DNA of 64,000 bases from a virus (taxonomy: Duplodnaviria > Caudoviricetes), in IMG/VR virus record IMGVR_UViG_3300049629_001293, positions 34,465-98,464 of that record. One strand, written 5' to 3'. How positions within the stretch are numbered: position 1 is the first letter of the stretch; every line of letters begins with the position of its first letter. The notes under the pieces are model-generated. The model searched no databases. It was not told the origin of the DNA and worked only from the letters and a program-made list of their open reading frames with translations. A program made the translations under genes and the position numbers. Of the stretch, positions 12,526 through 29,590 are shown in pieces.

Positions 12526-14085
12526 TCAGTTCCCTTGCCTAACTACAGAATAGATAAAATCAAACATTTCTGGATCGTTCTTAGCTAGGTAAATAGGGTT
12601 CCTGTGCATTAATTCTAATCCCATTGATAAAACCTCTGTATTATACATATTACTCCCGTACACTTTCCCCATGTAAGGATGTATCCATTTATCAACCTTG
12701 GTAACTTCGTAATCTTCGTAATTAAGTGGATGTACATCTTTTAATTTTACTATCTCCTCTCCGGCAGTTCTTCTATTATAAAAATTAAGCACCTCTTTGT
12801 GTATTAAAGGGGAACGATCCTCTATCCAATGCCCAGCTTCATGTATTAATGTTGCTTTCTCCGTGGTTCCCATGTCAATAGTCCCCGTTGGCCAGCAACA
12901 GCTTCTTTGTCCTTGTTTTATTTCACGGATAGACAATGTACTGGTTAACCCTGGAATTTCAATCATTCGAGAAAGTTCTTCTATCCCATCCTGATATTCT
13001 TTTTTTCTCTTTTTATCTAAAACTGTATTGTTAGTATTGATTTTTGTGGGATTATCCACATAGATTAATTTTCTGGCTTCTTGAAGAATTGCCTTAATTC
13101 TTTCGTTCGTCTTGGCTCCAGTGTAGTATTCAATGTTTTCATTTGTTAAAAATTGAGCTATAACCTTTTTAGGTAAAAATCGGGGTACGGGAGGGGAATT
13201 GTTTAAGTCTTCCTGTAATTTTAATAACTGCGCTCTTTTCCCTTGTGCTTCGATCATCAATGCGTCTCGTCTTCCCTTCCGTTGTTCCAATAAAATATCT
13301 AATTCTGCATCTTTAGCCTCTTTCTCCTTTCTTTCTTTCTCCCATTTCGCTCTAATCTGATCTGCTTTTATTCTAAGTTGTTCTGATATTGTTCTGAACT
13401 TCTCATCTACCTCATTAGCTTTTTTGAGACGTTCTTGTTCCTCTAGCATTACCTGTTTCTGTTTTTCTGATTTCTTTACTTCATATTCTTTCCTTTTTCT
13501 TTGTACTTCCTCCCAGTCCTTTATTAACAAGGGTTCTGTTATTTTCTTGAGTTCATCAGCTTTTTTAAGAAATTCTTTTTCTTCTTCGGGTAAAATACCT
13601 GGTTTCGTTGATCGTCTTAAATATTTTGCTCGTAATTCGTTTAATTTAAAAAGCCTTTCCTGAGAAAAATCGTCCTGAGCATTGGCTCTGCAACTTTTCT
13701 TGATATTGATACAAATACTTCCACAATTATAGGAAGTTGGCTTTACACACTGGGCTTTCTCCCTTTTCGCTCCCCCTGCATCAATTCGGTAAGAATAACC
13801 TGCTGAGAAGTCTTCCCAATTCTTTAAATCAACACCCCGACTATCAATTCTAGGGGTGAATGGTTTATAAACAACCGACTTCCTGTTTATCTCAAAGGAA
13901 AACACACGAGATCTGGTTAAGTCCTTAAACCGCCCTGTTATCTTTTCATTCTCCAGGGTTCCAGGATCGAAATCTAGCACAATGACCGGAGCATTATAGG
14001 CAAATGACATTGACAGAATTTGACCTATTGCCAATCTCATCTGAGCTTCGGAAGGTGCCATGTTAGGGGCAAAAGATTGAACCAT
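12526..14085 (-). CDS. Paralogous effector A: shared N module + Cys4 motif + coiled coil + HExxH metallopeptidase
   Basis: PSEAQMRLAIGQILS..FAYNAPV module, CVKPTSYNCGSICINIKKSC, LIHEAGHWIE...TEVLSMGLE. Confidence 0.75.
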   Translation of the reverse strand: MVQSFAPNMAPSEAQMRLAIGQILSMSFAYNAPVIVLDFDPGTLENEKITGRFKDLTRSRVFSFEINRKSVVYKPFTPRIDSRGVDLKNWEDFSAGYSYRIDAGGAKREKAQCVKPTSYNCGSICINIKKSCRANAQDDFSQERLFKLNELRAKYLRRSTKPGILPEEEKEFLKKADELKKITEPLLIKDWEEVQRKRKEYEVKKSEKQKQVMLEEQERLKKANEVDEKFRTISEQLRIKADQIRAKWEKERKEKEAKDAELDILLEQRKGRRDALMIEAQGKRAQLLKLQEDLNNSPPVPRFLPKKVIAQFLTNENIEYYTGAKTNERIKAILQEARKLIYVDNPTKINTNNTVLDKKRKKEYQDGIEELSRMIEIPGLTSTLSIREIKQGQRSCCWPTGTIDMGTTEKATLIHEAGHWIEDRSPLIHKEVLNFYNRRTAGEEIVKLKDVHPLNYEDYEVTKVDKWIHPYMGKVYGSNMYNTEVLSMGLELMHRNPIYLAKNDPEMFDFIYSVVRQGN

Positions 14086-14093
14086 GATTCTAC

Positions 14094-14393
14094 TTAATAA
14101 ACAATTTCAGACTCATCAACCACTTTCCCGTTAATTACCAAAGGAGGAGGAGCAATAGGTTGATCCATCACTGTCCCGTCAAAAGTCTTCGCCAGTTCTG
14201 TTGCAATCAACCAATCGGGGTCGGGAGTTGCAGGGGAATTAAGCCAGAAGAAAGGCGAGTCAGGGTCTATGGCTGCCAATTTCTCCATTGCTAATACATT
14301 GTTCAGGATCGAGGCATAATGGGGCGTTGAGGATGTCCAAACTCCATTCTCAATAACTGCCACTACACCGTTGATTTTGACGCGATAAGCCAT
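14094..14393 (-). CDS. Small acidic/Pro-rich protein, possible partner or inhibitor of the peptidase effectors
   Basis: 99 aa, tightly coupled between two peptidase paralogs. Confidence 0.45.
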   Translation of the reverse strand: MAYRVKINGVVAVIENGVWTSSTPHYASILNNVLAMEKLAAIDPDSPFFWLNSPATPDPDWLIATELAKTFDGTVMDQPIAPPPLVINGKVVDESEIVY

Positions 14394-14394
14394 G

Positions 14395-15561
14395 TTAACC
14401 TCTTCTAACTACCGAATAAATAAAATCAAACATATCGGGGTCTTGTTTAGCGAGTGCGACTGGATTCCTATACATTAATTCTAAACCCATTGAGAGAATT
14501 TCCGTTGACTCGTCAGGATAAACTTTTCCCATATAAGGACGCATCCATTTATCAACCTTTGTTATTTCAGTATCTCTATACGATTTGATTCCGGTTGCGT
14601 CTCGCATTTTGACCGCTTTTTCTCCCTTTGTCCTGCGATTGTAAAATTCTACAACTTCTTTCTTTATTTCTGGGACGGAGTATTCTATCCAGTGACTTAA
14701 TTCGTGAATAACTGTACCAGGGTCATCATTCCCCATTGACACGGTTTTATCTGCATTATTATAATAACTTCTCTTATCTCCCTCTGGCAAGCCTTTGACA
14801 TTAACCTTACTCGTTAAACCAGGAATTGACACCATTAAAGACAGTGATTGAATCCCCTCATCCCATCGGGATTTATTCTTTTTATCTTTTACTTTAACAT
14901 TAAGATTTGTAGGTAAGTTGACTTGAACTAATTTCCTGACTTCACTTGAAAACCTTTTGAAGTCTTCTGATGCAGCCTCTAATTCTCTTAATTTACCTTC
15001 ACTTAAAATATCAGCCAATGGCGGATTCGTTTTTAATAGTTTATCAATTTCTTTCTTTGTTCTTTTTATTAATTTAGCTAAGTATTTCTCTGGCTTTCCA
15101 TCGTCAATAGCCTTTATAATAGCACTACCTTTGTGTTTAGAAGGATCAAATTTAGATATAAAATCCTCTGACATTTTATCTAATCGTCCCCTAACTTCTT
15201 TCGCTTCTTCTAATAACCTAACTTTTCTTTGTTCTGGGGTTTCTGGTTTATTTATTGGTTTCTCTTTAGCAAGCAAGGGAATGTCGGGGGTGAAATCATT
15301 GATTGACTTTAAGTTGTCGACACCAGGAGGAATAATAGGATTGGATTTAATAGCCTTTTCTTTTGCAGACCTTCTACTAACGGCGGTAACGTAATCAATT
15401 CCTATCGCTTTTAGCTTCTCAAGCCTATCCTTTGACCTAGAATCATTCGGAACTATCCTGCAATTTTTCTTAACATTAATGCAAGATAGACCACAATTAT
15501 AGGAAGTAGTCTTTACACATTGAGCTTTCTTTTCCCTCTTGTCTTCTCTATATTTAATCAT
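14395..15561 (-). CDS. Paralogous effector B: Cys4 motif + HExxH metallopeptidase (no N module)
   Basis: YREDK, CVKTTSYNCGLSCINVKKNC, VIHELSHWIE...TEILSMGLE. Confidence 0.75.
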   Translation of the reverse strand: MIKYREDKREKKAQCVKTTSYNCGLSCINVKKNCRIVPNDSRSKDRLEKLKAIGIDYVTAVSRRSAKEKAIKSNPIIPPGVDNLKSINDFTPDIPLLAKEKPINKPETPEQRKVRLLEEAKEVRGRLDKMSEDFISKFDPSKHKGSAIIKAIDDGKPEKYLAKLIKRTKKEIDKLLKTNPPLADILSEGKLRELEAASEDFKRFSSEVRKLVQVNLPTNLNVKVKDKKNKSRWDEGIQSLSLMVSIPGLTSKVNVKGLPEGDKRSYYNNADKTVSMGNDDPGTVIHELSHWIEYSVPEIKKEVVEFYNRRTKGEKAVKMRDATGIKSYRDTEITKVDKWMRPYMGKVYPDESTEILSMGLELMYRNPVALAKQDPDMFDFIYSVVRRG

Positions 15562-16658
15562 TTTCTCCTCACAACACTATAAATAAAATCAAACATTTCA
15601 GGATCATTCTTGGCTAGATATACCGGATTCCTATACATTAATTCCATCCCCATTGATAATATTTCAGAAGCATTTTTATATTCTTTGCCCATATAAGGAT
15701 TTAACCATTTATCAACTTTTGTAACCTCATCATCTCTATAGTTCTTGTTTCCTGTAACTTCGCTCATCTTAACGGTTTTTTCCCCTGCCGTTCGCTTTTC
15801 GTAAAAAGATTCAACTTCTTCTCTAATCCCTGGCACTTTCTCCTCTAGCCAATGACTCATCTCGTGAACTACAACAGCAGGGTCAGGATTCCCCATATAA
15901 ACATTATTTGTTTTCGGTTTGTAATAGCTTCTCCCTTTTCTTTCTGGCGGAGCATTAACTATATTAACTGGAGCATCCAGCCCTGGAATTGAGATCATTT
16001 TTTGGAATACCTCAACACCTTTTTGATGGGATCTAGGATTTCCGGTTTTGACGGATGAATTCAACTTAGTTGGACTATCCACTTCTACCAATTTTCTAGC
16101 CTTCTCTAAAAAAGCCTGAGCTTCTTTGTTCGAGGTATTAAACACTCTCTCCGCCCTTGCTGATAGCCTCTCAGCCTCTTGTGGGTCTTCTTGCGACAAA
16201 CCCTTGATTTTCTTACTGTAAAGAAGTTTATTCTTTTTAAGTTGCCGAACGGGGTTCTCCGATTCAAGTAACGAGGCAGTCCCTTTCTTCGTAACAGATG
16301 TTTCGCTAACGCCCTCGTATAATTTCAGCAGTTCCTCTCGCTTGCTTGCAGCCTCCGCTTTTAGTCGTGCTTTCCTGCGAGCTTGATTGATAATCTTCCT
16401 GTCCACTGCCAACTCGGACGCTTCTGTTTTTCTGGCTTTTTCTACCACGCCAACCAATTCATCGGCCGCGGCTTTTTGCCTTAAAGACCTTGCTGACTTC
16501 GATTTTGATTGAGCATAGAATTGAGAGATTTGTTTTAACCTCTGAAGACGCGATCGCCCAAAAGATTCAGAAGGGACTTGCCGGCAATTTTTAGAGACGT
16601 TAATACAGGCGTTGCCACAGTTATAGGATGTTGGCTTTTCGCATTTGGGCTTCTTCAT
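15558..16658 (-). CDS. Paralogous effector C: Cys4 motif + HExxH metallopeptidase (no N module)
   Basis: CEKPTSYNCGNACINVSKNC, VVHEMSHWLE...SEILSMGME. Confidence 0.75.
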   Translation of the reverse strand: MKKPKCEKPTSYNCGNACINVSKNCRQVPSESFGRSRLQRLKQISQFYAQSKSKSARSLRQKAAADELVGVVEKARKTEASELAVDRKIINQARRKARLKAEAASKREELLKLYEGVSETSVTKKGTASLLESENPVRQLKKNKLLYSKKIKGLSQEDPQEAERLSARAERVFNTSNKEAQAFLEKARKLVEVDSPTKLNSSVKTGNPRSHQKGVEVFQKMISIPGLDAPVNIVNAPPERKGRSYYKPKTNNVYMGNPDPAVVVHEMSHWLEEKVPGIREEVESFYEKRTAGEKTVKMSEVTGNKNYRDDEVTKVDKWLNPYMGKEYKNASEILSMGMELMYRNPVYLAKNDPEMFDFIYSVVRRK

Positions 16659-16773
16659 TTCAGAACATCACCATTAAGTTTATTGGGTTACTTTTTTGTA
16701 TTGATTTTTCTTCGAGATAAAGCATAATTAATAGTAGGAATTAACTATGTTTTATTTGGGATTGAGTCGTCGC

Positions 16774-18189
16774 TTAAATTTCTTCTACTTCGACATATAT
16801 TGTGCCATCTTTTTTTGTGACATTCTTAACCTTATGTTTTGCACTTTTTGGTACAACAACTTCGGACACCCACTCATAACCCTCTGGGGTAAGGTTTTGA
16901 ATAGATGCACCCGTTTTATTTATCGCCTTAAGCACAACACGTTGTCCAGCATCACCGGCTCCTCTAAAACCAGCAAATTTTTCGGCAGTCTTGGGATCGG
17001 TAGTCCATGAAGCATGGGCACCTTGATTGTCTAATACCCCATCTTTGTCCCCTTTTAGCCAATTCATAGCTTCATCTTCTGAATCAAAATTCATCCCCCT
17101 CTGTATCTCTCCCTTGTATGGGGTCGAATTTGCAAGATATTTAGAAATTAAATTTGCTCCTACGTTTGGTCTATTTTCTTTTTGTGATCTTCTAATTGCT
17201 TCGGAATTATAAACCCACGATCTGACATATTTAACAGTCGCCTTAGCCTCGCCTTCTGTTATTTCAATTCCTTTCTTCCTGGCCATCTCATAGTATTCTT
17301 GTGGGTTTTTAGGTGTACTTTCATGAGTCCCATCACCAATCAAATTTGTTGGCTCAGGCTTCTTGGTCTCTGGTTCAGGTTTTTTAGTTTCTTCCTTTGG
17401 TTTAGATGCTTCTTTCTTTGGTTTAGATGCTTCTTTCTCTGGAGATTGAGTGGAACTTGGCGCTGTCGTTTTTTGGGATTTTATGTAGTTAGCAACACCA
17501 TCTTTTATTTTTGATAATTGAGTGCCACTAACCCCGGCTTTCGTTGCAGCTTCTTCTAGTTTAAGAACACTAACTCCTGCTTTCTTTGCCAAACCTTCTA
17601 TCTGAGCAATGGAAAGAGTTTTTGCTTTTTCTTTCGTCTGTTTTTCTGCTGGTTTTTTCGTTTCAGCATTAGGATCTGTTTTAGCTGTTTTAGTTACTTC
17701 TGATGCCTTGGGTTTTTCTGTTACTTTGGTTGTTTTTGCATAATCCTTCCCTACTTCCTTTAATTTACTAAGCCTCTCCTGTGAATTACTATCTTCCGTG
17801 CTGGATTTGCAGTTATTCTTAATATTGATACAGGCTTTCCCACAATTATACGCTGTCGGTTTAACACACTGTGGCTTCTTATTACCTCCTATCCCCGCAT
17901 CTACCCGATAGGAGTAGCCACTAGAGAATTCCTCCCAGTCATCTACGCTATCCATCCGTCCTGGGGTGTAAGGTTTAAAAGTGACTGATTGCCCTTTGAT
18001 ATTAAATGAAAAAATACGGGGACGGGTTGCATCCTTGAATTTGCCTTCAAACTCCCCTTGATCATTTACCGAAAAATCCAATATCACCACCGGAGCATTA
18101 TAGGCAAATGGTTGAGACAGAGTTTGGGCGATCGCCAACTTCATCTGTGGCTCGGTTGGCGTGGCATCTTTTCTAGTCGTTGAACTCAT
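16774..18189 (-). CDS. Paralogous effector D: N module + Cys4 + ADP-ribosyltransferase (R-S-E clade)
   Basis: YKGEIQRG (R), HASWTTD (S), WVSEVVV (E). Confidence 0.7.
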   Translation of the reverse strand: MSSTTRKDATPTEPQMKLAIAQTLSQPFAYNAPVVILDFSVNDQGEFEGKFKDATRPRIFSFNIKGQSVTFKPYTPGRMDSVDDWEEFSSGYSYRVDAGIGGNKKPQCVKPTAYNCGKACINIKNNCKSSTEDSNSQERLSKLKEVGKDYAKTTKVTEKPKASEVTKTAKTDPNAETKKPAEKQTKEKAKTLSIAQIEGLAKKAGVSVLKLEEAATKAGVSGTQLSKIKDGVANYIKSQKTTAPSSTQSPEKEASKPKKEASKPKEETKKPEPETKKPEPTNLIGDGTHESTPKNPQEYYEMARKKGIEITEGEAKATVKYVRSWVYNSEAIRRSQKENRPNVGANLISKYLANSTPYKGEIQRGMNFDSEDEAMNWLKGDKDGVLDNQGAHASWTTDPKTAEKFAGFRGAGDAGQRVVLKAINKTGASIQNLTPEGYEWVSEVVVPKSAKHKVKNVTKKDGTIYVEVEEI

Positions 18190-18200
18190 GGTTAAATCTC

Positions 18201-20150
18201 CTATACTTCCTCAGCTTCAACAATAATCCGTCCGTTTTCTTCCTTGACACTTTTAACTCGATGGCGAGTGTCTTTTAGCACCATAACTTCGTCTTCTTCT
18301 TTGATCCTGCTCAAATTCCTAATAGACACACCTGATTTATTAATGGTTTTAATGACGACGGGATACCTTTTTTCCTCAATAAAGAAATCGTCCGAAAAAT
18401 TCTTTGCTGTTTTAAGGCTAGATGACCAAGAGGCGTGAGCACCTTGATTATCTAGCACCCCATCCTTGTCGCCTTTAGTCCAGTTTAAAGCCTCCTCTTT
18501 GGTTGCAAAATGAATCCCTCGGTAAACTTCGCCTTCGTATGGGGTTGAGTTCCTGACATAATTAGAAATCCGATTGGCATCCTCGTTTTCTTCCCCTGCT
18601 TTTTGATCGACTCGGATGTCAGTGGCATCCCTTGTCCATTTATAGATGGCTGTAGTGGTGGCTGCTGCCTCCTTCTTAGAAATATTTACTCCTGCTTTTT
18701 CCAGTGCTTCACGATACTCATCGGGGGTTGAGGGCATGGATTCGTGGTCGCCCTTCCCTACTAAATTAAGGTTTTTAGGTTTTTCTTCGGGTTGTTTAAC
18801 CGCCTTTTCCTCGGATTCTTTTTGGGTTTTAGTTATTTCTGGTGATGGTTCAGGCATTTTCTTTTCCTTGTTAGGAGAAACTTCTTCTGTCTCAACGATC
18901 AAAACACCATCTTCGTACACAACCTTTTTAACCCGATGGCGAGTGTCTTTGATGACCACTACCTCATCTTCCGTATCAAAGGTGCTTAAATTTTTGATAG
19001 AGGCACCTGACTTATTAATTGTTTTGATAATGATAGGTTGTGATGTCTCATCGAACGCATTGTCAACAGCAAATTCTCTCGCTTTATCCCAATTAGAAGT
19101 CCAAGATGCGTGGGCATTTTGATTGTCCAATATTCCGTCTTTGTCTCCTTTTGCCCACTCCAGTGCTTCTTCTGTTGATTCAAGGGAGATACCTCGGTAG
19201 ATTTCACCTTTGAATGGCGTTGAACTCTTGACGTAATCAGTGATCCGGTCGGCAACGAGGCTGTATTTCCCTGCTTTTTGAGATTCTCTAATATAAGAGG
19301 CATCTTCTGTCCACTCTTTAACGGCTCCGGTAATCTTTATAGCATCGTCATAAGAGATGGGATTACCCGATGCTTTCATTGCTTCAAAGTACCCGTATGC
19401 GTCGCCAGGAACGGACTCATGATCCCCCTTCCCTACTAAATTAAGAGGCTTGGGTTCGTTTTCAGGTTCTTTAAGGGTTTCTGTTTGATCTTCACTCTTT
19501 ACAGCTATTTTAGCAGCTTTCTTCCCTTCTTCAAAGTCAGATTCTTTCCCTTTTTTGCTAGGGGGAATTTCCTTTATTGTTTCTGGGATTTTATCTATTT
19601 CTGGTGGTTTTTCTACCTCTTTCTTGGTTTTTGTAGTTGATTTAGGATTGGATTTCTTGGCTTCTTTAGCGTAATCAATACCAGCAGCTTTCAATTTCTC
19701 TAAACGATCCTTTGACTGAGCGTCATCGGGGTTTGATTTACAATTATTATTAATATTTATACAGGCTTTCCCGCAATTATATGCGGTGGGTTTAACGCAT
19801 TGGGGTTTCTTTTTGTCTCCTGCCTTGCCTTTTGCTTTAGCCGTTTTAGCCTTGGCATCAAAACGGAAGGAATAGCCTAATGAGAACTCCTCCCATTGTT
19901 CTACTGCATCGCCCGAATCCATCCGTCCTGGGGTATAAGGTTTGAAGTTAACGGTATTTCCATCTAACTCAAAATCAAACACCCTCGGACGGGCAGAATC
20001 CTTAAATCTCCCAGATATTTTACCCGTGTCATCTACCTTAAAGTCCAGCACGTCCACTGGGGCGTTATAGGCAAAAGGAAGAGCAAGAGTCTGGGCGATC
20101 GCTGCTTGCATTTGTACTTTTGTTGGGGCTGTTTTAGTCTCTATGCTCAT
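18201..20150 (-). CDS. Paralogous effector E: N module + Cys4 + two tandem ADP-ribosyltransferase domains
   Basis: GEIYRG/ASWTSN/TEDEVVV and GEVYRG/ASWSSS/EEDEVMV. Confidence 0.75.
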   Translation of the reverse strand: MSIETKTAPTKVQMQAAIAQTLALPFAYNAPVDVLDFKVDDTGKISGRFKDSARPRVFDFELDGNTVNFKPYTPGRMDSGDAVEQWEEFSLGYSFRFDAKAKTAKAKGKAGDKKKPQCVKPTAYNCGKACININNNCKSNPDDAQSKDRLEKLKAAGIDYAKEAKKSNPKSTTKTKKEVEKPPEIDKIPETIKEIPPSKKGKESDFEEGKKAAKIAVKSEDQTETLKEPENEPKPLNLVGKGDHESVPGDAYGYFEAMKASGNPISYDDAIKITGAVKEWTEDASYIRESQKAGKYSLVADRITDYVKSSTPFKGEIYRGISLESTEEALEWAKGDKDGILDNQNAHASWTSNWDKAREFAVDNAFDETSQPIIIKTINKSGASIKNLSTFDTEDEVVVIKDTRHRVKKVVYEDGVLIVETEEVSPNKEKKMPEPSPEITKTQKESEEKAVKQPEEKPKNLNLVGKGDHESMPSTPDEYREALEKAGVNISKKEAAATTTAIYKWTRDATDIRVDQKAGEENEDANRISNYVRNSTPYEGEVYRGIHFATKEEALNWTKGDKDGVLDNQGAHASWSSSLKTAKNFSDDFFIEEKRYPVVIKTINKSGVSIRNLSRIKEEDEVMVLKDTRHRVKSVKEENGRIIVEAEEV

Positions 20151-20251
20151 GTTTTTGCTCTTCCTTTTGCTTTAGAAGTATTTATACAAGAATTGCCGCA
20201 ATCGCAAGAAGTGGGTTTAACACATTTAGGTTTTTCGCTTTTGACCCACAT
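20147..20251 (-). CDS. 34-aa mini-ORF consisting mainly of the family's Cys motif
   Basis: Manual translation MWVKSEKPKCVKPTSCDCGNSCINTSKAKGRAKT*; starts 1 nt after the upstream stop codon and ends in an ATGA overlap. Confidence 0.55.
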   Translation of the reverse strand: MWVKSEKPKCVKPTSCDCGNSCINTSKAKGRAKT

Positions 20252-20252
20252 A

Positions 20253-21611
20253 CTATTTAGTTACTTGAGCAAAAGACCTCATTTTGCCCGCCGCGTTTTG
20301 GATTCCGTCGCCATATCTTTTATTGATATCAGAACCAGGAGGATATTCCCCTCTGCCTACGCCATTAAGAGTAAACAAATCATTCTCGTGTAAGTCAAGC
20401 ATGGCTCTATTAAAATCACCCCGACCAACCTTATCCCCCATTGCGTCACGGATCTTGTATATAGGGACAAGACCTCCATGATTCCCTTCTTTGTCTATGT
20501 CTTTCAATAGTGTAGATATCTCTTTCTGTATTTCTTTTTGATCAGACATCTGCCCTGGTTTGCGCTTAAATTCTTGTTTTGCTTTTTCAATAGCTTTTGT
20601 GTCTTTTATAACAAAAGATTGACGATTCCTGTTGAACATATCGGTAATTCCGTCCGAAGGATCAAATTGTCCGTCTGGATTCATATCCTCTTTTTTTAAC
20701 GTTCCAGTTTCTAGTTCGATTCCCTCGTCATCTGTACCTGCCTTTAGTGTCCATTTATCAAAGTCTTCTTTACTCACCCTGTCTTTTAATTCATGTCTCA
20801 TTTGTGCTATGTTTACTCGATCTCCTTGTCCTAACTCAAACGCAACCCTAGCTGCTTCTTTGACAATCTCCTTTTTAAAGGTGTCATAATCCTTTATTGG
20901 TTCGTCACTATAAAAGGGATTTGCCTTGGATTTAGGACTAGATTTAGCTTTGGGTTTAACTTCGGGCTTTGGCTCGATCTTGGCTTCTGGTTCTGCCGTT
21001 TTCTTTGTTGCCAATTTTTGACCAGTAGGCTTTTTACTCTCTGCTTTAGGCTTGGTTTGGGGCTTTTCTACAGTCGTTTTTGCTGTTTTCGCGTAATCTT
21101 TCCCAATTCCTTCTAACTTTTTAAGCCTGTCTTTTATTGTGGGATCATTGGTTTTGATTTTGCAGGTTTTCATGATGTTGATGCAAGCTGCACCACAATT
21201 GTAAGCTGTCGGCTTAACGCATTGAGGCTTTTTTTTGCCACCTACTCCCGCATCAACACGGAAGCCATACCCTGCTGAAAATGCCTCCCATTCTTGGACA
21301 TCTTCCTCTGATTCTAAGCTGTCCATTTTGCCAGGTTTATAAGGCTTATAGGCTACGGACTCCCCATCTAGGGTAAAGGAAAACACCCGTGGACGTGCCG
21401 CATCTTTAAATACTCCGGTAATATTGCCATTCTCGGCAACATCAAATTTAAGCACAACAACTGGGGCGTTATAAACAAAATCCATTGACAAGGTTTGGGC
21501 AATAAGTAACCTCATTTGAGCTTCGGTTGGTGCAGTACCTCCGCCACCATCCCCAACTAATACTTCATCTTCGTCAACACGGAACAAAGAACTTGGTTTT
21601 GTTTTTAACAT
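20253..21611 (-). CDS. Paralogous effector F: N module + Cys4 + two tandem helical (winged-helix-like) domains
   Basis: Repeats RVNIAQMRHELKDRVSKEDFDK and LVPIYKIRDAMGDKVGRGDFNR. Confidence 0.6.
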   Translation of the reverse strand: MLKTKPSSLFRVDEDEVLVGDGGGGTAPTEAQMRLLIAQTLSMDFVYNAPVVVLKFDVAENGNITGVFKDAARPRVFSFTLDGESVAYKPYKPGKMDSLESEEDVQEWEAFSAGYGFRVDAGVGGKKKPQCVKPTAYNCGAACINIMKTCKIKTNDPTIKDRLKKLEGIGKDYAKTAKTTVEKPQTKPKAESKKPTGQKLATKKTAEPEAKIEPKPEVKPKAKSSPKSKANPFYSDEPIKDYDTFKKEIVKEAARVAFELGQGDRVNIAQMRHELKDRVSKEDFDKWTLKAGTDDEGIELETGTLKKEDMNPDGQFDPSDGITDMFNRNRQSFVIKDTKAIEKAKQEFKRKPGQMSDQKEIQKEISTLLKDIDKEGNHGGLVPIYKIRDAMGDKVGRGDFNRAMLDLHENDLFTLNGVGRGEYPPGSDINKRYGDGIQNAAGKMRSFAQVTK

Positions 21612-21632
21612 GATTTTACCTTTTATAAATAG

Positions 21633-22608: not shown

Positions 22609-22611
22609 TTA

Positions 22612-23091
22612 TTACCCACGGATGTTCATAGTATTAACCGATTTGATATTCTTGACTTGCTCCGCTATTGCCTTAGAAATAGCGGGACGATCTTCTCTTT
22701 TCTCGGATCGTTCTAGCCAATCAATATCACTAGAATTGCGAATTAGATCTAGGGCATCTTTTTCAATATAATCAAGGGTTGTTTCAGTAGGAAACTTCCC
22801 TTCCTCTAGGGTGGGAGAGATTACTCTGAATGCTCCGCAATTAACAAGTTGCAATCCGAGGGGATGCCGAACAATATAGTCATAGTCCTCGTCGGGAAGC
22901 TCCAAATTAGTCCCAGGCAGAATCCAACTCCCCCGTGTTTCCACCGCATCCAACGAGGTTTTTTTGGTTCCCCCACGAGTAATAGGACGGGAGAAACGGA
23001 TCGGCGAAGTGATAGCCTCCACTGATATTCCATAGGGAATGCGTGGATTATGAGGATTTAGCTTTGGGTCAAAGATGATAGTTTTAGACAT
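22612..23091 (-). CDS. Head-associated hypothetical protein
   Basis: Directly after the capsid gene; ILPGTN motif and a C-terminal helical E.R.AI.KAI segment. Confidence 0.5.
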   Translation of the reverse strand: MSKTIIFDPKLNPHNPRIPYGISVEAITSPIRFSRPITRGGTKKTSLDAVETRGSWILPGTNLELPDEDYDYIVRHPLGLQLVNCGAFRVISPTLEEGKFPTETTLDYIEKDALDLIRNSSDIDWLERSEKREDRPAISKAIAEQVKNIKSVNTMNIRG

Positions 23092-23093
23092 TT

Positions 23094-24047
23094 TTATTCG
23101 GGTAATACTACAATGTGCATGGAGAATGGGCGTTTGAGGTCAATTCCCCCAAACTTAAACTTGGCACCACGCCAGAAAGAATCAACACCAATGGGACGAG
23201 TATCAGTCCACTTTAATGGTTGATAAATCTTAGCAGAGACTTTTTTGGGATCTCGACGGAAAGCCTGAATAAAGCGGGTAGGAGCCAAACCAATCGACTC
23301 TAAATATTCGGGAGCCATCTCGGACACCACACCGACTTCTTTGATGTTGGAGTTGACTTTTAAGAAGTGTTCTAACACCGTGCGATCTAAGGCAGATGTA
23401 CCAATTTGAATGATATCCGAGGAGAGGTGTTCGTAAGTTTCCGAATCCATCAGCAAAGTGTCAGGCTTCTCTCGGTTATTGGTCAACCGAGTCGGGGCAT
23501 TCACACAATCATTCAACACACTCAGCTTTTGTTGAGATGTTGCAGACCCGTTTAAAGGGAAGGGAGCATAAGACCGCAGGGCTTGGGGGTGATTCAAAAA
23601 ACCTGGCATCCCTGTTTCTAAATCTCCGTTTGCCACCAACTGATTGATTTTTTGTTGTGCGGCTTCTTGAATTGTCCAGATTTTGTCCTCCTCAATGCTC
23701 TCGCCCATTCGACTGACAGCCGCGATATCATCCTCGGAAACGCTATAACCTTGTCCCCATTTATGGATCGGCATCTTCATCTCGCCATAGACCAGTTCCA
23801 CTTCGGGAAGGTCTGTGGTGTAGTTTCGGATTAATTTGAACTGCCCGACGTGACGGAGCCACCGATATCCCCAGGTTTTTGCCCAGGGCTTGTTTTGGAT
23901 GTTGAGAGGGCAAATGACTCCAGCAGCGAAAGGATAGTCCGCAAGATCGAACTCCTTATCTACTTGAGCTTCTAAGTCCATCAGGGTGCCAAAGAACGTC
24001 CCGATTTCATCAGCATCCAACCTTGTAGTCCCGGAAAAGTTCATCAT
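23094..24047 (-). CDS. Major capsid protein (DUF2184, HK97/encapsulin-like fold)
   Basis: 317 aa; DLP.V, G.GY.VS.DDI, GD...GMPGFLNHP, E.PDTLL, GG....RP motifs; follows the DUF2213 and decoration genes. Confidence 0.85.
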   Translation of the reverse strand: MMNFSGTTRLDADEIGTFFGTLMDLEAQVDKEFDLADYPFAAGVICPLNIQNKPWAKTWGYRWLRHVGQFKLIRNYTTDLPEVELVYGEMKMPIHKWGQGYSVSEDDIAAVSRMGESIEEDKIWTIQEAAQQKINQLVANGDLETGMPGFLNHPQALRSYAPFPLNGSATSQQKLSVLNDCVNAPTRLTNNREKPDTLLMDSETYEHLSSDIIQIGTSALDRTVLEHFLKVNSNIKEVGVVSEMAPEYLESIGLAPTRFIQAFRRDPKKVSAKIYQPLKWTDTRPIGVDSFWRGAKFKFGGIDLKRPFSMHIVVLPE

Positions 24048-24066
24048 AGTTTAAGTTCTTTCTATA

Positions 24067-24897
24067 TTAAGGAACATTGAAGCCGATTAAAACGCACACC
24101 GCGCCAGTGCTAGTGACCACAGGGGAACATTTGAACTCAGCCTTCGCGGAGATATTAATTGTACCACTTGTCACTTTTGTTGCTTTCCCCTCGTGTCCCG
24201 CAGCAACAGAGACGTAGACGGCATCATTGATTGTGATATCCGTCTCAACACATTCAACCCAGATCCCTGACGATTCCCCTGTCCGGTCAACCACGTCCAT
24301 CACATCCTGATAGGGGTAAGTTGTCCCACTATAGTTTGCACCTTGATAAATCAAAGGTTGCATTTCGATGTCTTTGACGATTCGAGTAATCCCTAAGATT
24401 ACGTCAGTGGTAGCAGTAGGAAGTCCTGCAACTTTGGGGTCGGTTTCGGTGTTTGCTCTGGCAACAAACCGACCGAATGGTACGGGGAGAGGAATAATCA
24501 TCGCCGTGGTTACAGTTGCCGTTAAACTAGCACCAGTAACTACCAGGATGTTCTCGATACCATATTCCAGTGCCGTGAATAGCACGTTATTCCCACTAAC
24601 ACTTGCAATCCCCCGTCGCCCAAAAGCAGGGTTTACTCGGATTGCATTCAATAAACCAGCTTGCAGTTCCGCTTGAGTGGCACTAGCATCGGTTGTAAAA
24701 CGTGCCGTGCCTAGTCCGTTGTTTAACCTGACGGTATATACAGTGCTAGAAGCAGGGGAGGCAGGAATCGCCAGAGTCCAGACCTCTTTAACAGCATTCT
24801 TTATAGAAACAAGGGCTTTGACTCTCGGAAAATTAATAGATCCCTCGCCCATGCCAGGAGTCGCCCGATCAAATTGAAGATTGTAGTTGTACCGCAT
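24067..24897 (-). CDS. Capsid decoration/cement protein with an inserted Ig-like domain
   Basis: PFGRFV...LP......GI...Y....V...GIWV...VYV pattern; sits between protease and capsid genes. Confidence 0.65.
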   Translation of the reverse strand: MRYNYNLQFDRATPGMGEGSINFPRVKALVSIKNAVKEVWTLAIPASPASSTVYTVRLNNGLGTARFTTDASATQAELQAGLLNAIRVNPAFGRRGIASVSGNNVLFTALEYGIENILVVTGASLTATVTTAMIIPLPVPFGRFVARANTETDPKVAGLPTATTDVILGITRIVKDIEMQPLIYQGANYSGTTYPYQDVMDVVDRTGESSGIWVECVETDITINDAVYVSVAAGHEGKATKVTSGTINISAKAEFKCSPVVTSTGAVCVLIGFNVP

Positions 24898-26432
24898 TAT
24901 CTAGTAACCCCCATGCGTGTTTTTCCTATCGTTAAAGGCTGCTTATAGGCGTGCACCCGTCGTCTTTCCCCTTCGGTGAGTTCATCTCCGTAGGTAGATT
25001 GAGCAGGTCTTTTGAGCATCGAATCAAGGCGATGGGAGAACTCCTCTGAGTCTCCATCGTCTCCATCGTCTCTATCTTCTTCCTCCTCGTCATCCCCTTC
25101 TTCTTTATCACCTGGATCGGTGGGGGAAGAATCGTAATTCTCCTGAACGTAGGCAAAAACCCCGTCTACATAAGAATCGGATCGGAACGTCAAGTCCATA
25201 TTGGGTTCGATTTCAGCTAACAAAGTGCGTTTGATGTCGCTAGTAGAGAAGCTACTATCAAACCGAGCGTCAGAGAACCCTGGCAACAAACTGTCGGCTT
25301 CCTTCCATATCGCCAAAAGATCCCCGACCGAATCACCCCGACAAGCACTCTCATCTTCGTCGTTGCTATCAACACGAGGCTTGGACTTTTTTTTCTTTTT
25401 GGAAGTCGTAGTTTCTTCTTCCTCTGCAACATCCCATTCTTCCATCATTTCTTCTTCTTCATTGTCCTCCTCTTCCATCATTTCTTCATCTTCGGGAACG
25501 GGAGGCATCATTTTCTTTTTGCCTCCATCAACGCGGACGTACTGCCCCATGTCATTCCGGTAATAACCTAATTCACCAAGGACATTATCGGCATTGTCTA
25601 CGATGATCTCTAGGTTATCTAACCGGAACTGGTAATTTTCCCGTGCGGCTTCTAGCTTCCGGTTCTCCCGACTCGTAGTATCAAACCGTGTAACAAGCGA
25701 ATCGTGGCGTTCCTTTAATTCTTTCAATTCACGGAATCGAGTACCGCTAATGGAAGCGAAAGATTCAGGGATTCCTGAATACTCAACTCCATCGCATCTA
25801 ACTATTGCCATACGCTGTTCATTATCTCCATTATCATTGGTTTTGTTAGGGTTACTAGGGTTTTCGATGACTTGCCCTGCGACAGCTTGTCCAATCCCCG
25901 CAGCACTATCTAATCGGAGGCGAACATCTCCCCCTGCCCTTCCTCGGCTCGTCAAAGCCAAATGGTTGGCACGGACATTAATCTGTTCCCTGTCATAGTG
26001 TTGCCCATTCCACACCCCTTCCCCTTGCTTGATGTCGCAGGTATATCCAGCAGATAGTTGTTCCTTTTCCCTTGCATCAATTAGGGCGATCGCCTTAGCA
26101 TCAAAAAACGACACCAAGCCTTTGATCACCCCTTCAGTCTTGTCATAATAAGCAGAAGAATCAGTCATCCCTACCGTGTAATCCTTGTAGCTTTCGCTAT
26201 TAAGAAGTCCAACATAGGGATGTTCTATCACCAGGGGGAGGAGTTTGAAACTCTCTACTGTGGCCAGTTCTGCATTGGTTTCCGGTCTCCTGAGTTCGTG
26301 GACTATGGAGCCATCAGGCTGACGATACTCCAACACCCCGTCACAACAAAAAGACCCCTCACAATGGAGACGACCATCCTCAGTTCTTATTACCCTAAAT
26401 TTAGTTGGAGCATCGAGCCTGATTTCAACCAT
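24897..26432 (-). CDS. DUF2213 prohead protease/scaffold fusion
   Basis: GVLEY...ELR.PE, HP, QLSAGY.C, YD..Q.N...NHLAL..RGRAG..VRL.LDS; acidic scaffold-like tail. Confidence 0.9.
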   Translation of the reverse strand: MVEIRLDAPTKFRVIRTEDGRLHCEGSFCCDGVLEYRQPDGSIVHELRRPETNAELATVESFKLLPLVIEHPYVGLLNSESYKDYTVGMTDSSAYYDKTEGVIKGLVSFFDAKAIALIDAREKEQLSAGYTCDIKQGEGVWNGQHYDREQINVRANHLALTSRGRAGGDVRLRLDSAAGIGQAVAGQVIENPSNPNKTNDNGDNEQRMAIVRCDGVEYSGIPESFASISGTRFRELKELKERHDSLVTRFDTTSRENRKLEAARENYQFRLDNLEIIVDNADNVLGELGYYRNDMGQYVRVDGGKKKMMPPVPEDEEMMEEEDNEEEEMMEEWDVAEEEETTTSKKKKKSKPRVDSNDEDESACRGDSVGDLLAIWKEADSLLPGFSDARFDSSFSTSDIKRTLLAEIEPNMDLTFRSDSYVDGVFAYVQENYDSSPTDPGDKEEGDDEEEEDRDDGDDGDSEEFSHRLDSMLKRPAQSTYGDELTEGERRRVHAYKQPLTIGKTRMGVTR

Positions 26433-26505
26433 TTCTCAATACAAAAAACAAATAATTCTTTTTAAAGAATAACGCACCCTATCAGTCATTTAAAGAGGGT
26501 GCAAA

Positions 26506-26529
26506 AAAATAATTTCTATACAAGAAAAT
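26506..26529 (-). promoter_or_regulatory. 24-bp element, copy 1, upstream of the head operon
   Basis: AAAATAATTTCTATACAAGAAAAT, identical at 30139-30162. Confidence 0.55.
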
Positions 26530-26564
26530 AGACTAAAATTAAATCAATGATTTAGATATAAATA

Positions 26565-26939
26565 ATGACTATTACAAAAAGAGAGTATCCTTCTAAGAAA
26601 ACGTTAGGATCTGGTGCATTGGCTCCCTATCGCGCTCTCGGTCGGTCAATTCGACGAGATCTTATAAATGCAAATCTTGGAATGATGGAATTTAGCGAGA
26701 AAAGTGGGTGGGATTGGCAGACAATTCGACGGATTTTAATGGGGGAGCGGCGGACGGATTTTATAGAACTGTTGATTATCGCTTCGTTAATTTCTGAGGA
26801 TCAATCGGAAACGGAAAGACTGATCCTCACCTGGACGAAGGAAACTTTGAAAATCATCGAGGAAGGAATCCCCCAAGAAATTAACCCAGGTCTTGTTGAT
26901 AATCTTGTCGAGATTAACGAAGAGATCCCTTTAGAATAG
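26565..26939 (+). CDS. XRE-family HTH protein
   Basis: LGMMEFSEKSGWDWQTIRRILMGERRTDFIEL. Confidence 0.65.
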   Translation: MTITKREYPSKKTLGSGALAPYRALGRSIRRDLINANLGMMEFSEKSGWDWQTIRRILMGERRTDFIELLIIASLISEDQSETERLILTWTKETLKIIEEGIPQEINPGLVDNLVEINEEIPLE

Positions 26940-27333
26940 CAATAATCTCCTGACGATTCCGTTGGCTTACTCCTAAAAATTGACGTTTAGGCATTTTCTT
27001 AGTGCCTTTTTGTAAATAGGAGCCATAGGGCAATGGAGTCCCTACCTCAACCCTTCCTTTTTCAATCCGATATCGAATAGAAGATCGCAACAATCCTTGG
27101 CGTTGTAGTATTTGCATAATAAAACCCCGACTAGCCTTGTATTTAAGGGTTGATGGGGCTAGGTGTTCCCATTTCTCCCCATAAGGACTCTGTTCCTTCT
27201 GGAAGTTCTCATCGGTTGATGCCACCATGAACTGCCCAACTTTATGCAGTTCAGGTGTGAGGTTCTGAAACTTTCTGATTAATTTATTGAGGTAATTTTG
27301 GACTTGGTTAGCAACGAATTTTAGGGATAGCAT
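26914..27333 (-). CDS. Phage virion morphogenesis protein (Mu gpG / Phage_tail_S-like)
   Basis: NF..EQSP.G.KW..L.PST...ILQ..G.LR.SI...VGT...YG..LQ.GT.KMP.R.FLG. Confidence 0.85.
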   Translation of the reverse strand: MLSLKFVANQVQNYLNKLIRKFQNLTPELHKVGQFMVASTDENFQKEQSPYGEKWEHLAPSTLKYKASRGFIMQILQRQGLLRSSIRYRIEKGRVEVGTPLPYGSYLQKGTKKMPKRQFLGVSQRNRQEIIAILKGSLR

Positions 27334-27530
27334 AGGGTTAAAAGTAAAATATATCCTAATTTTAATATAAAAAAGGAAGGCTTTAACACCTCCTCCATCT
27401 TACCGTTTCAGTTACCCTCTGCACCCTCAAAACCCTCTTTTAATATTGTTTTGACTTTTGACTGTTTTCTGTCTTTTGGGTAGCTAACCGATTCTTGTCT
27501 TCAAGTAGACGATTATACGCTACAACCTCA

Positions 27531-29168
27531 TCAAGAACTCGGTTTTTTTCCAAATCGGTAAGTTTTTTGTAGTTCATCTAGTACCTGTTCATATACTTCT
27601 TTTATTATTTTAGCAGAACCTTTTTGATTATTGGCTAATTTTTCTGCTGCTTGATTCAAAAGTGTCGAAACTTTTCCTGTTAGCATTTTTTCTTGATCAA
27701 ATGCCCCTAGTGCTTTTTCTGCAATATCAGCAATTTCACTTGACTCCTCTACGTTGATTTTATTTCCTGCTTTGGCTAAATCTGAGGCAGCTTTTGACTT
27801 CCCAACAGTTGAGAATAAACGCTTTTCCCTTTGCAACTGTCTTTTTATAGCAGATTGAATCTGGGCTTTTTCAATAGCCAAAGAGCGAGATTCAGGGGAA
27901 AATCCCAACAAATCAAATAAGCCACCCTGAGATTCGGTTATTGTTGGGGCATTTGTTACCATATCGGACAATTCCTCTATAGTGTCATTAGTGATCTTTT
28001 TACCTTTTTTCTCTTCTTTCTCCACTAACTCTAGTAAGTCTTGTTGTTGGCGGTGATCTTTTATTTTAGAACCAATTACAACAGCCCTTTGTTCGGGGAT
28101 TTGACCCTGTACCACTCTATTAAATAGAGAGTCACTTAGACTAGCTAAAGCCAGCCCGTCCTCAGCTATTTTCTCCCTCATGGGTACGCCTTTTTTCTCT
28201 AGGTCTTGTTTTGTTAAACCAGAATCTCTAAAGAATTTAGCTGCATCCTGAGCATTGCCTCGACCTTCTGCGATATTTGTTAATGCACCAATAGCACGGG
28301 CTTCTTCTGGAGATTTAGCATCAATTAATTTTACGGTGACGGATTCAGCATTTAGTTTTTTAGCTAATGCAAGTCGGTTGTGACCGTTCACGACATAAAC
28401 ACCGCCATCTTTGGGATCTTGCCAAACTTGAAGGATGCCACCCAGGTTAGAATCCCACGTTTTAACTCCCGACAAACTCCCGACTTCTCCCGACTTGGTT
28501 TGCTCTCCAATGATCTTGTATTGAAATCTTTTAGGGTCAACCTGGATTTTACTGGGGTCGGCTTCTGCTATTCCTGAAGACAAGACTTGATCCGCCCCCA
28601 ACCGAGAAGCAGCATCATCCCACTTTCCTGCTGGTTTCGGTGTCAGCTTGTTATTCTCCTGCCTCTTAGCCGGATCATCCTGAGCCTCCTTAAACCCTCC
28701 CGCCATAGCTTTAACTTTGTCCAGCTTTTCCTGGGAAGGTTTATCAGGGGGGTCTGACTTGCAGTTCTTATTTAAGCTAATACAAGCCTTCCCGCAGTTA
28801 TAGGAAGTATTGCCACACTTAGGTTTTTCCTTCCTAACGGTCTTAGCTACATCGAATCGGTAGCAATACCCCTTTGAGTAGTCTTCCCACGCCACGGGGT
28901 CAACGTCGAGGCTGTCGGTTCGTTTCCAGGTAAACGGTTTGAAGGCAATGGAATCCCCAATCTCAAACTCAAAAACACGGGATCTAATGGCGTCCTTAAA
29001 CCGTCCTTTGATGATGTTTTTGTTGCCTACTTCAAAATCCAGAACGATAACCGGAGAGTTGTAGGCAAATGGCATCGACAAGACTTGAGAAATACCAAGT
29101 TTCATCTGCACTTCTGTTGGGGCAGCATCAAAGCTAGGGGGATTTTGACGGTTTAAGGTAGTGACCAT
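27531..29168 (-). CDS. Paralogous effector G: N module + Cys4 + ParB-like domain
   Basis: PTEVQMKLGISQVLSMPFAYNSPV module, CGNTSYNCGKACISLNKNC, VDPKRFQYK...YVVNGHNRLALAK. Confidence 0.7.
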   Translation of the reverse strand: MVTTLNRQNPPSFDAAPTEVQMKLGISQVLSMPFAYNSPVIVLDFEVGNKNIIKGRFKDAIRSRVFEFEIGDSIAFKPFTWKRTDSLDVDPVAWEDYSKGYCYRFDVAKTVRKEKPKCGNTSYNCGKACISLNKNCKSDPPDKPSQEKLDKVKAMAGGFKEAQDDPAKRQENNKLTPKPAGKWDDAASRLGADQVLSSGIAEADPSKIQVDPKRFQYKIIGEQTKSGEVGSLSGVKTWDSNLGGILQVWQDPKDGGVYVVNGHNRLALAKKLNAESVTVKLIDAKSPEEARAIGALTNIAEGRGNAQDAAKFFRDSGLTKQDLEKKGVPMREKIAEDGLALASLSDSLFNRVVQGQIPEQRAVVIGSKIKDHRQQQDLLELVEKEEKKGKKITNDTIEELSDMVTNAPTITESQGGLFDLLGFSPESRSLAIEKAQIQSAIKRQLQREKRLFSTVGKSKAASDLAKAGNKINVEESSEIADIAEKALGAFDQEKMLTGKVSTLLNQAAEKLANNQKGSAKIIKEVYEQVLDELQKTYRFGKKPSS

Positions 29169-29220
29169 TGTTTTTGAGAATAGATTTACCGAGTCTTTCT
29201 GTACGGGTGCAGGTCGGGGT

Positions 29221-29445
29221 TTACCAGTCTTCCGGCCCTTGAGCTACAAAACGTTTGGCACGTTCGCGTTTTTCATCTTCTGTCAAATCGTCATAGCTTT
29301 TTTTTGGATATTTCTTAGCCATTCTTTTATCAAATTCCTGCAATGTCTCCCCTTCCCCTAAAGCATCCTCATCTTCGGATACAACAGCAGGAGGAACGGT
29401 TTTAATTTTCTTTTGTCCTTCAACAGCAGTTTTTTTGGCTTTCAT
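29221..29445 (-). CDS. Small charged hypothetical protein
   Basis: 74 aa ORF upstream of effector G. Confidence 0.45.
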   Translation of the reverse strand: MKAKKTAVEGQKKIKTVPPAVVSEDEDALGEGETLQEFDKRMAKKYPKKSYDDLTEDEKRERAKRFVAQGPEDW

Positions 29446-29495
29446 AATTGATTTTCGTTTTTAATGCTAATAGGTCTATTATACTTTGTTTTTGC

Positions 29496-29590
29496 TTAAT
29501 TAAGTTTACTTCTACCAATATCAAAATGTGCTTGGGCGATCGCTAACTTCACCCGGATTTCTGTTGGCGGAGCATCGAATCTTAATTTTG
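29496..29590 (-). pseudogene. Relic of the effector N module
   Basis: Manual translation ...KLRFDAPPTEIRVKLAIAQAHFDIGRSKLN*, no in-frame ATG; matches SFDAAPTEVQMKLGISQ. Confidence 0.6.

Follow-up and report, generated by a model that had tools for sequence, protein, structure and literature searches.

Results

Seven genes with a constant leader and exchangeable cargo

The 64,000-nt stretch of DNA analysed here (the window) spans bases 34,465–98,464 of the 98,464-bp virus record IMGVR_UViG_3300049629_001293, which CheckV rates as complete. It is related to Planktothrix phage PaV-LD (~88% nucleotide identity over 60% of window 12,000–30,000), and the source is a PaV-LD-like lake siphophage with a complete 98-kb genome. 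Near its head genes lies a family of seven genes whose proteins begin with a common leader and continue into different C-terminal domains, here called cargo. In its full form the leader consists of an N-terminal module of ~100 aa (the N module), a disordered spacer behind a conserved RxDA motif, a four-cysteine (Cys4) knuckle and a basic helix. A preliminary description made from the sequence had placed seven open reading frames (ORFs) of this design between 12526 and 29590. All were found there, on the minus strand and in the same direction as the head genes, and the first coordinates quoted below are 3' ends.

12526..14085, minus strand: 519 aa; N module, Cys4 (residues 113–132), coiled-coil region and HExxH domain (HEAGH at 415)
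14395..15561, minus strand: 388 aa; without N module, Cys4 at 15–34, HExxH domain; orthologue of PaV-LD ORF081R
15558..16658, minus strand: 366 aa; Cys4 at 6–25 and HExxH domain
16774..18189, minus strand: 471 aa; N module, Cys4 (108–127), K/P/E linker with a double 'AKKAGV' repeat, and one ADP-ribosyltransferase (ART) unit
18201..20150, minus strand: 649 aa; N module, Cys4 (118–137) and two ART units
20253..21611, minus strand: 452 aa; N module, Cys4 (131–150), Lys/Pro-rich linker and a predicted tandem winged-helix domain (245–452)
27531..29168, minus strand: 545 aa; N module, Cys4 (118–136) and a putative ParB-like/PHROG-21-like C-terminus

The claims that one N module opens five of these genes and that Cys4 occurs in all seven both held. 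The five N modules align over ~100 aa with 47–62% identity to that of 16774–18189, and 46 columns are invariant in the alignment of the five leaders. A six-frame scan of the window with an N-module profile returned exactly these five ORFs (E 9e-54 to 3e-51), and in the whole 98,464-bp genome, too, the profile found these five alone. Cys4 has the spacing C-x7-C-x3-C-x6-C in six genes and C-x6-C-x3-C-x6-C in 27531–29168, followed by a conserved helix. The K/E/P-rich linker of the preliminary description was confirmed in four of the seven genes. At the DNA level, the paralogous leaders are 60–80% identical.

17695..18189, minus strand: full leader of 16774–18189 (N module, disordered RxDA spacer, Cys4 knuckle, basic helix), the sequence modelled
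13576–14085, 19626–20150, 21042–21611 and 28644–29168, minus strand: equivalent full leaders
15346–15543 and 16470–16658, minus strand: Cys4-only leaders

Remnants of leader sequence lie in and between the genes. The protein of 14395–15561 begins with a remnant of the N-module end (YREDK aligned to YRxDA), and that of 15558–16658 starts four residues ahead of its first Cys, with a 4-nt overlap between its stop and the start of the next gene. Two relics occur in spacers:

~20135..20248, minus strand: broken Cys4 relic between two family genes, with internal stops and no start codon
~29532..29576, minus strand: relic of an N-module start (..APPTEIRVKLAIAQ.. followed by unrelated sequence and a stop)

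The second relic accounts for the end coordinate of 29590 in the preliminary description; PaV-LD has a second complete family gene in the corresponding region. Between leader and ART of 16774–18189 (window 17430–17620, residues ~190–255), a double 'AKKAGV..L.E' helix-turn-like repeat is found that accompanies ART cargo in relatives as well and may, we presume, be a small SAP/Rho-N-like DNA-binding element. A 26-nt unit repeated three times in tandem (81–100% alike; 21627–21704) stands directly upstream of the start of 20253–21611 and overlaps the end of the preceding gene; it may be a regulatory site.

Structure and conservation of the leader

An AlphaFold2 (AF2) model of the leader built from a 44-sequence alignment reached a mean predicted local distance difference test (pLDDT) of 82 and a predicted template modelling score (pTM) of 0.74. 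In the model, the N module comprises a helix at residues 13–24, four strands within 34–73 and a helix at 82–90, and a low-confidence, probably disordered stretch (95–103) lies directly past the conserved RxDA, whose R and D are at least 90% conserved. The Cys4 part is predicted as three short Cys-bearing strands (113–130) and a long helix (134–157). The 53-residue segment of Cys4 and helix carries a net charge of +4 to +10 in all seven proteins, compared with −45 for the scaffold/protease of the head.

The leader belongs to no named family in Pfam, NCBIfam, PDB sequences or solved folds. It had been described as unrecognised, and profile searches agreed: Pfam gave nothing even at E≤10, NCBIfam and PDB sequences gave nothing, and the ESM Atlas held no usable match. 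With the model as query, Foldseek on PDB returned nothing at E≤1e-3, and the best VIA-align Z was 4.1, the top rows being generic alpha+beta proteins (VirB8/TrwG, cystatin-like) and tail proteins not being matched. The predicted fold is thus without an assigned match, which does not prove it to be new. PHROGs 16619 and 33618 were the only family matches, and both contain relatives of PaV-LD proteins. No description of the module was found in the open-access literature searched. The N module also occurs by itself: PaV-LD ORF083R (L001 5655–5966) is a 103-aa ORF consisting of the N module alone, and N-only proteins of ~100–130 aa are present among database representatives (P0112, P0113, P0115), which may be fission products or fragments.

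Cargo domains

Of the cargos described earlier, three HExxH domains, one ART and a double ART were confirmed; the HExxH domains are putative peptidases, the tandem helical domain was reassigned, and the ParB-like region is unverified. The protein of 18201–20150 matches Pfam ART PF01129 with 26.1 bits against a cut-off of 22.3 and contains two ART units, with which the C-terminus of 16774–18189 aligns, motifs kept. Each of the three has YRG/QRG and ASW(T/S)(T/S), plus a Glu conserved within E-D-E or S-E, motifs that we take to be the signature of R-S-E type ARTs. The HExxH domains of the three genes are homologous to each other, and HExxH together with a downstream conserved E..SMG.E is present in each; sub-threshold Pfam hints pointed to Tox-MPTase3 (E 0.039) and MPTase-PolyVal (E 0.21), and PDB sequences gave no match.

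What had been called a tandem helical domain in 20253–21611 is, with moderate confidence, a tandem winged helix. The AF2 model of this C-terminus had a pLDDT of 83 and a pTM of 0.80, and VIA-align placed its second half best on 9f2a_C (Z 8.8, root-mean-square deviation 1.6 over 63 residues), a Z of 8–9 being only moderate by the tool's own note. The other rows examined were mostly winged helices (Rpa2, ORC, MCM, histone H1/H5), and the first half has the same order of secondary structure as the second. Foldseek top rows included tandem winged-helix proteins (ESCRT-II, SelB) at non-significant values (E≥0.03). This is the most conserved cargo and occurs also at the distant locus L043. The 'ParB-like' label of 27531–29168 is unverified and derives from a motif and from relatives: the piece 27531–28613 matched nothing in Pfam at E≤10, and relatives with other C-termini (P0078, P0111) carry ParB_N. 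The gene matches PHROG 21, the C-terminal part of portal fusion proteins, at E 1.9e-56.

Near-identical leaders with different cargo

Relatives were typed by their nearest window N module and by BLAST to the window cargo domains. The 20253-type N module is found at 100% identity with the winged helix (many proteins) or with an AQ-repeat plus ART (P0013), and at 97% with three ARTs (P0022). At 99% identity, the 27531-type module stands ahead of ART-ART without the ParB-like region (P0096) and the 16774-type ahead of ART-ART-GNAT (P0002–P0004), and the 18201-type occurs with ART-ART, GNAT alone, ART-GNAT, three ARTs or ART plus winged helix. Ten loci were compared, namely the window, PaV-LD and eight of 45 fetched viral loci, chosen for many family ORFs or for distance; cargo sets differ in all ten and gene order is the same. 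Between the window and PaV-LD, DNA similarity spans the leaders and ends where the leaders end. For 27531–29168, similarity to PaV-LD ORF061R ends at window 28633, at about residue 178, and 16774–18189 has no PaV-LD counterpart. The constant N-terminus with interchangeable C-termini is therefore borne out by near-identical leaders joined to different cargo in relatives, as well as by natural recombinants.

The stretch is present in 20 of 24 listed sequencing runs, six of them on record as RNA, and contigs of four runs were compared. In the DNA run X11, one contig links 17929 with 19888, matching over 123 bases on one side and 268 on the other; the joint lies, in frame, where the conserved WEEFS of one N module corresponds to that of another, and the depth of the recombinant contig is 307 versus 62–80 for the window-like arrangement. 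Other contigs leave the window sequence at 13678 (X15), 17807 (X11) and 28753 (X15 and X11), which is 4, 1 and 3 residues past the last Cys of three genes. The remaining contig joints have short sides (<31 nt) or undefined intervening letters. Contigs of two RNA libraries cover family genes (e.g., 17894–20157 in X15, with 23 differences), a hint of transcription.

Relatives in databases and in distant phages

An exhaustive profile search of 1.84 billion representative proteins gave 187 relatives at E≤1e-3, of which 102 reached E≤1e-10 and 37 reached E≤1e-30. Among the 150 listed of these 187, the module is N-terminal in 113 and internal in 24, and 13 have the Cys4 part only. At least two Cys4 motifs occur in 18 of the 150; it is the Cys4 element, not the N module, that recurs two to four times within long polyvalent relatives, the longest of which reach 1,975 aa. 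A Pfam scan took 122 of the listed relatives, short ones and those seen earlier being left out, and found domains in 17 of 60 and 9 of 62: InPase (9), ART, GNAT, ParB_N, LPD1, DUF676/lipase, LRAT, Pkinase, DnaJ and pentapeptide. InPase stands directly ahead of the N module in nine relatives. One listed protein with Ig domains (P0217) is probably a false match. A word-based search for longer proteins gave 93 matches of 290–943 aa with precomputed Pfam domains GNAT, ART, ADPrib_exo_Tox and ParBc. Searching 50,697 phage records by tblastn with the leader and two distant relatives found PaV-LD only, and a profile scan of genome contigs (alignment A4) found no locus. Contigs with this phage family also turned up in metagenome-assembled genomes of Acetobacteraceae and Gammaproteobacteria (L048–L052), most likely through mis-binning of phage contigs.

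The relatives extend the head-gene context to distant phages. A distant 110-kb viral contig (L043/L046) has DUF2213, a PF09950 major capsid protein (MCP) and a Phage_portal_3 portal; directly after the portal it encodes N+Cys4+ART, InPase+N+Cys4 and N+Cys4+HExxH, with N+Cys4+winged-helix nearby. A 152-kb contig (L045/L047) resembles it. In Aphanizomenon phage CL131, gp044 (Cys4), gp045 (N-like+Cys4), gp047 (Cys4) and gp048 lie between the head genes and the tape measure protein (TMP, gp049), and gp048, of 1811 aa, has four Cys4 elements, one full leader and lipase-like domains. A local profile matched gp048 (domain E 1.8e-16) and gp045 (1.4e-9), and Foldseek on BFVD tied the leader model to CL131 proteins (E 4.5e-6 and 1.6e-3) and to proteins from a pair of Nodularia phages, one protein being named ParB/Sulfiredoxin. 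The CL131 portal unites portal, InPase and MuF in 1393 aa, and scores behind its InPase hint weakly at an N-like stretch (local HMM E 0.004; hhalign E 0.026 with a probability of 1.9%). On present evidence we rejected the leader as a MuF homologue, as the genome has no PF04233 match at E≤1 and hhalign gave a probability of 0.1% between the leader profile and the CL131 MuF region.

The preliminary description had suggested running leader profiles on sequence databases and looking for DUF2213 heads and varying C-termini. Both were found together: the link to DUF2213/PF09950 head modules holds in three divergent phage lineages, and C-termini vary between relatives. The kinship that it saw with the domains of polyvalent proteins is likewise evident from the Pfam domains of the relatives.

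Head-gene context

On the minus strand, the genes run in the order portal-InPase, 27531–29168, Mu G-like, DUF2213, XM1-gp53-like and PF09950 MCP; downstream of the MCP follow a DUF4054 protein, two small genes and the other six family genes (21611 down to 12526), and last a 174-aa ORF and a 1681-aa tape-measure-like protein.

31627..33621, minus strand: portal (Phage_portal_3) with C-terminal InPase domain (PF18823), by Pfam
26914..27333, minus strand: Mu G-like virion morphogenesis protein (PF05069), by Pfam and PHROG
24897..26432, minus strand: DUF2213 prohead protease/scaffold, net charge −45 with two acidic tracts, by Pfam and charge count
23094..24047, minus strand: MCP (PF09950), by Pfam and PHROG
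6683..11728, minus strand: 1681-aa protein matching the annotated tape measure protein of PaV-LD; bounds the main family cluster

The head genes of phage Mu are ordered portal–F–G–I–T, and 27531–29168, placed between the portal and the Mu G-like gene, occupies the slot of Mu F. The MuF domain itself (PF04233) had no match at E≤1 across the whole 98-kb genome. In PaV-LD, ~7.4 kb (L001 17692–25105) lies between the Mu G-like gene and the leader corresponding to 27531–29168, versus 1.3 kb in the window (27353–28632), and includes a KilA-like gene and a second family gene.

Homologues in purified virions

Remote homologues of the family are present in virions. [quoted passage not shown] All four proteins are basic, with a pI of 9.1–9.7, and gp044–gp048 appear in that paper as hypothetical structural proteins, with no remark on a shared module (PMC6293099). 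The PaV-LD record labels ORF081R (Cys4+HExxH) as 'virion structural protein' and ORF085R (Cys4+ART) as 'minor virion protein'. Elsewhere, PMC10286775 mentions the identification of 13 structural proteins for a phage whose genome is similar in size, and PMC9096620 holds nothing on structural proteins.

The earlier proposal of a virion cargo loaded by an N-terminal tag gains indirect backing as to the virion location, and loses the N module as a necessary loading tag. With Cys4-only members among the proteins that are labelled as virion components or were seen in virions, presence there does not require the N module.

The most PSM-rich virion protein of CL131 per residue is gp045 (L044 39949–41310). 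It has a leader, a hydrophobic Gly/Ala segment and long Ala/Lys/Glu-rich repeats, with a pI of 9.7, and resembles an internal DNA-associated or membrane-inserting ejection protein. Its assignment as a major tail protein, from abundance and position, was set aside in view of the Ala/Lys-rich helical repeat and the hydrophobic Gly/Ala segment.

Discussion

An effector arsenal probably loaded through a common leader

We favour, as fairly probable, the reading that the seven genes make up an arsenal of polyvalent effectors, 'unbundled' into separate proteins, and that the leader is what loads them into the virion. The constant part would consist of the alpha/beta N module in five genes, a short disordered spacer, and the basic Cys4 knuckle with its long helix in all seven, and it would bring each protein into the assembling virion beside portal and scaffold in a phage without a recognisable MuF. 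The portal region may be the docking site, because one member lies in the Mu F slot, family genes follow the portal in distant phages, and InPase, with which the portal of this phage ends, is fused ahead of the leader in nine relatives. Alternatively, loading may be electrostatic, with the strongly basic Cys4-helix settling on the extremely acidic scaffold or on DNA. RxDA and the disordered spacer form a candidate processing site. At infection, the proteins would exit with the DNA and find their targets in the host: ARTs would modify host proteins in the manner of T4 Alt, the winged-helix and ParB-like proteins would act on DNA, and the HExxH domains would process partners or cut host proteins, two options that are discussed for polyvalent-protein peptidases (PMC5512222). 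Homologous recombination within the leader, together with crossovers just past the Cys4 codons, would produce new combinations.

Because Cys4-only proteins also appear to be virion proteins, we give the Cys4 element no lower odds than the N module of being the essential part. More tentatively, and as less likely than not, we propose that the ~170-aa leader is an unnamed portable signal for virion loading and co-ejection that replaces MuF in a cyanophage lineage, in which Cys4 would tether the cargo to packaged DNA or the acidic scaffold and the Cys4 codons would double as the crossover site.

Several points weigh against the arsenal reading. The virion data come from the relatives CL131 and PaV-LD rather than the source phage, and the PaV-LD labels are known from the deposited record alone. 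The homology to CL131 is remote, BLASTP of 20253–21611 against gp045 giving only E 0.008. Cys4-only members (PaV-LD ORF081R and ORF085R, CL131 gp044 and gp047) are virion proteins too, and the main cluster adjoins the tape-measure gene, which would also suit tail-associated proteins. The HExxH and ParB assignments are below Pfam significance. The joints and loose ends were taken from assemblies instead of raw reads and are good hints rather than proof, and the RNA-library contigs may contain DNA.

Alternative explanations

The observation that Cys4 is in all seven genes and the N module in five is in keeping with an alternative in which the basic Cys4 knuckle and helix are the real virion determinant, e.g., a Zn knuckle tethering cargo to packaged DNA or acidic scaffold, and the N module does another job: docking a subset to portal/InPase, masking the enzyme, or serving as a propeptide removed at RxDA. 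The Cys4-only state of both virion-labelled PaV-LD proteins and of CL131 gp044 and gp047 fits this explanation, as do the repetition of Cys4 in long relatives (two to four times, in 18 of 150 listed), the net charge of +4 to +10, and the strong conservation of R and D in RxDA beside a low-confidence spacer. However, the N module is the best-conserved part and is N-terminal in 113 of the 150 listed relatives, and N-only ORFs such as PaV-LD ORF083R exist; we hold the explanation to be less likely than not, though worth serious attention. Less probable still is that the proteins belong to the tail or ejection apparatus and are carried in, or along with, the tail lumen and the tape measure protein instead of in the head. 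Six of the seven genes do lie between head-completion genes and the tape-measure gene, CL131 gp044–gp048 have the same position ahead of TMP gp049, the hydrophobic Gly/Ala segment of gp045 recalls membrane-inserting ejection proteins, and the record note of gp047 mentions similarity to a tape-measure-domain protein. But one member sits in the portal/Mu G slot, the genes directly follow the portal in distant phages, the leader is fused behind InPase, a portal-fused domain, and solved structures, those of tail proteins among them, gave no match to the leader model (best Z 4.1).

We consider it improbable that the family consists of unpackaged enzymes that work late in the cytoplasm, for example as maturation peptidases or by modifying proteins of the phage or the host, with the leader as an oligomerisation or regulatory domain. 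Co-orientation with the late genes, HExxH domains that could process other proteins, and virion proteomics taken from relatives and not the source phage would be compatible with such enzymes; the LC-MS/MS of CL131 virions and the virion labels of PaV-LD speak against them, as does a domain repertoire typical of virion-delivered polyvalent proteins (PMC5512222). Polymorphic toxins of the classical kind, which serve bacterial competition and are of the MuF-toxin or prophage-encoded type with immunity genes, share the constant N-terminus with variable C-terminal enzymes, and ART and metallopeptidase cargos are common toxin domains. The genome has no MuF domain, however, and no small conserved partner gene after each cargo; the element is a complete 98-kb phage genome rather than a bacterial locus, and its cargos include a winged-helix domain and GNAT, so that this origin is very improbable indeed.

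Relation to known systems

The family shares several features with the polyvalent proteins of phages and conjugative elements (Iyer et al. 2017, PMC5512222): a repertoire of zincin-like peptidase, ART, GNAT, ParB, InPase, LPD1 and kinase domains, a location beside portal and head genes, and, for both, a predicted delivery with the DNA. The repertoire of that class is seen in the Pfam domains of the relatives and its head-gene context in the window, where the family is flanked by head genes and InPase forms part of the portal. The long relatives of the leader family, with two to four Cys4 elements, are true polyvalent proteins. In contrast, the arsenal here is split over seven genes, each with its own copy of the leader; window genes have one cargo type each, one of them with two ART copies, and close relatives combine ART+GNAT or ART+winged helix. 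In the main text of PMC5512222 the words 'cysteine' and 'ribbon' are absent and every mention of 'zinc' concerns a peptidase; the same source reports a paucity of polyvalent proteins in cyanobacteria.

Polymorphic toxins with MuF are built from a constant N-part and variable C-terminal enzymes. One family gene here occupies the Mu F slot, and MuF-anchored effectors and toxins resemble the family in their constant head-associated N-part and alternative C-terminal enzymes (PMC5512222, PMC9503650). They differ in that the present genome has no PF04233, that the leader is dissimilar to the CL131 MuF region, and that the family is multi-copy within one phage. T4 Alt, an ART, and other internal proteins are packaged and injected with the DNA (PMC5512222), as is presumed for the present family.

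The T4 capsid-targeting sequence (CTS) is an N-terminal packaging signal, a ~10-residue peptide removed by the prohead protease. The leader described here is unlike it, being a folded domain of ~100 aa with a Cys4 knuckle and cargo that is exchanged between relatives. In the Dar antirestriction system of phage P1, the head is loaded with several proteins from separate genes, among them a ParB-like one, which are then injected; the Dar proteins are not known to share a leader. DdrB-ParB is named in PMC5512222. CL131 gp044–gp048 (PMC6293099) resemble the family in the Cys4 element, the position between head genes and tape measure, and the presence in virions, and differ from the window in their cargos, which are lipase-like domains and an Ala/Lys-rich repeat with a hydrophobic segment.

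Constant-N/variable-C effectors are already known for MuF and portal fusions, and ARTs beside head genes have been proposed as packaged (PMC9503650). New are the unnamed leader in 187 representative proteins and its multi-copy deployment with one cargo per gene, as are Cys4 as punctuation of long polyvalent relatives, the traces of leader-mediated cassette exchange, and the cyanophage home. Virion-delivered effectors decide the first minutes of infection, and few loading signals are known (the T4 CTS, MuF or portal fusions). The family offers a defined, conserved leader with about ten natural kinds of cargo, and recombinants that mark the sites of cargo exchange. It places polyvalent-type arsenals in phages of bloom-forming filamentous cyanobacteria (Planktothrix, Aphanizomenon and probably Nodularia) and offers a reading for a number of virion proteins that are 'hypothetical' in PaV-LD and CL131. 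Among the cargos, ART, GNAT, peptidase and winged helix may serve takeover of, or anti-defence in, a host of ecological importance.

Additional observations on neighbouring genes

Relatives of the portal 31627–33621 at 65–71% identity likewise end in InPase, and a partial relative is named 'anti-CBASS Acb1 family protein' in one source. In the DUF2213 protein 24897–26432, a short Lys run separates the two poly-acidic tracts, and an 18-nt deletion variant at 25060 was seen in run X16. In the same run, an RNA library, the summed contig depth over window 11800–12413 is ~27,000, versus tens to about 2,000 elsewhere, and dozens of contigs continue from ~11893 into unrelated letters, perhaps because an RNA end is abundant there or through an artefact of the library.

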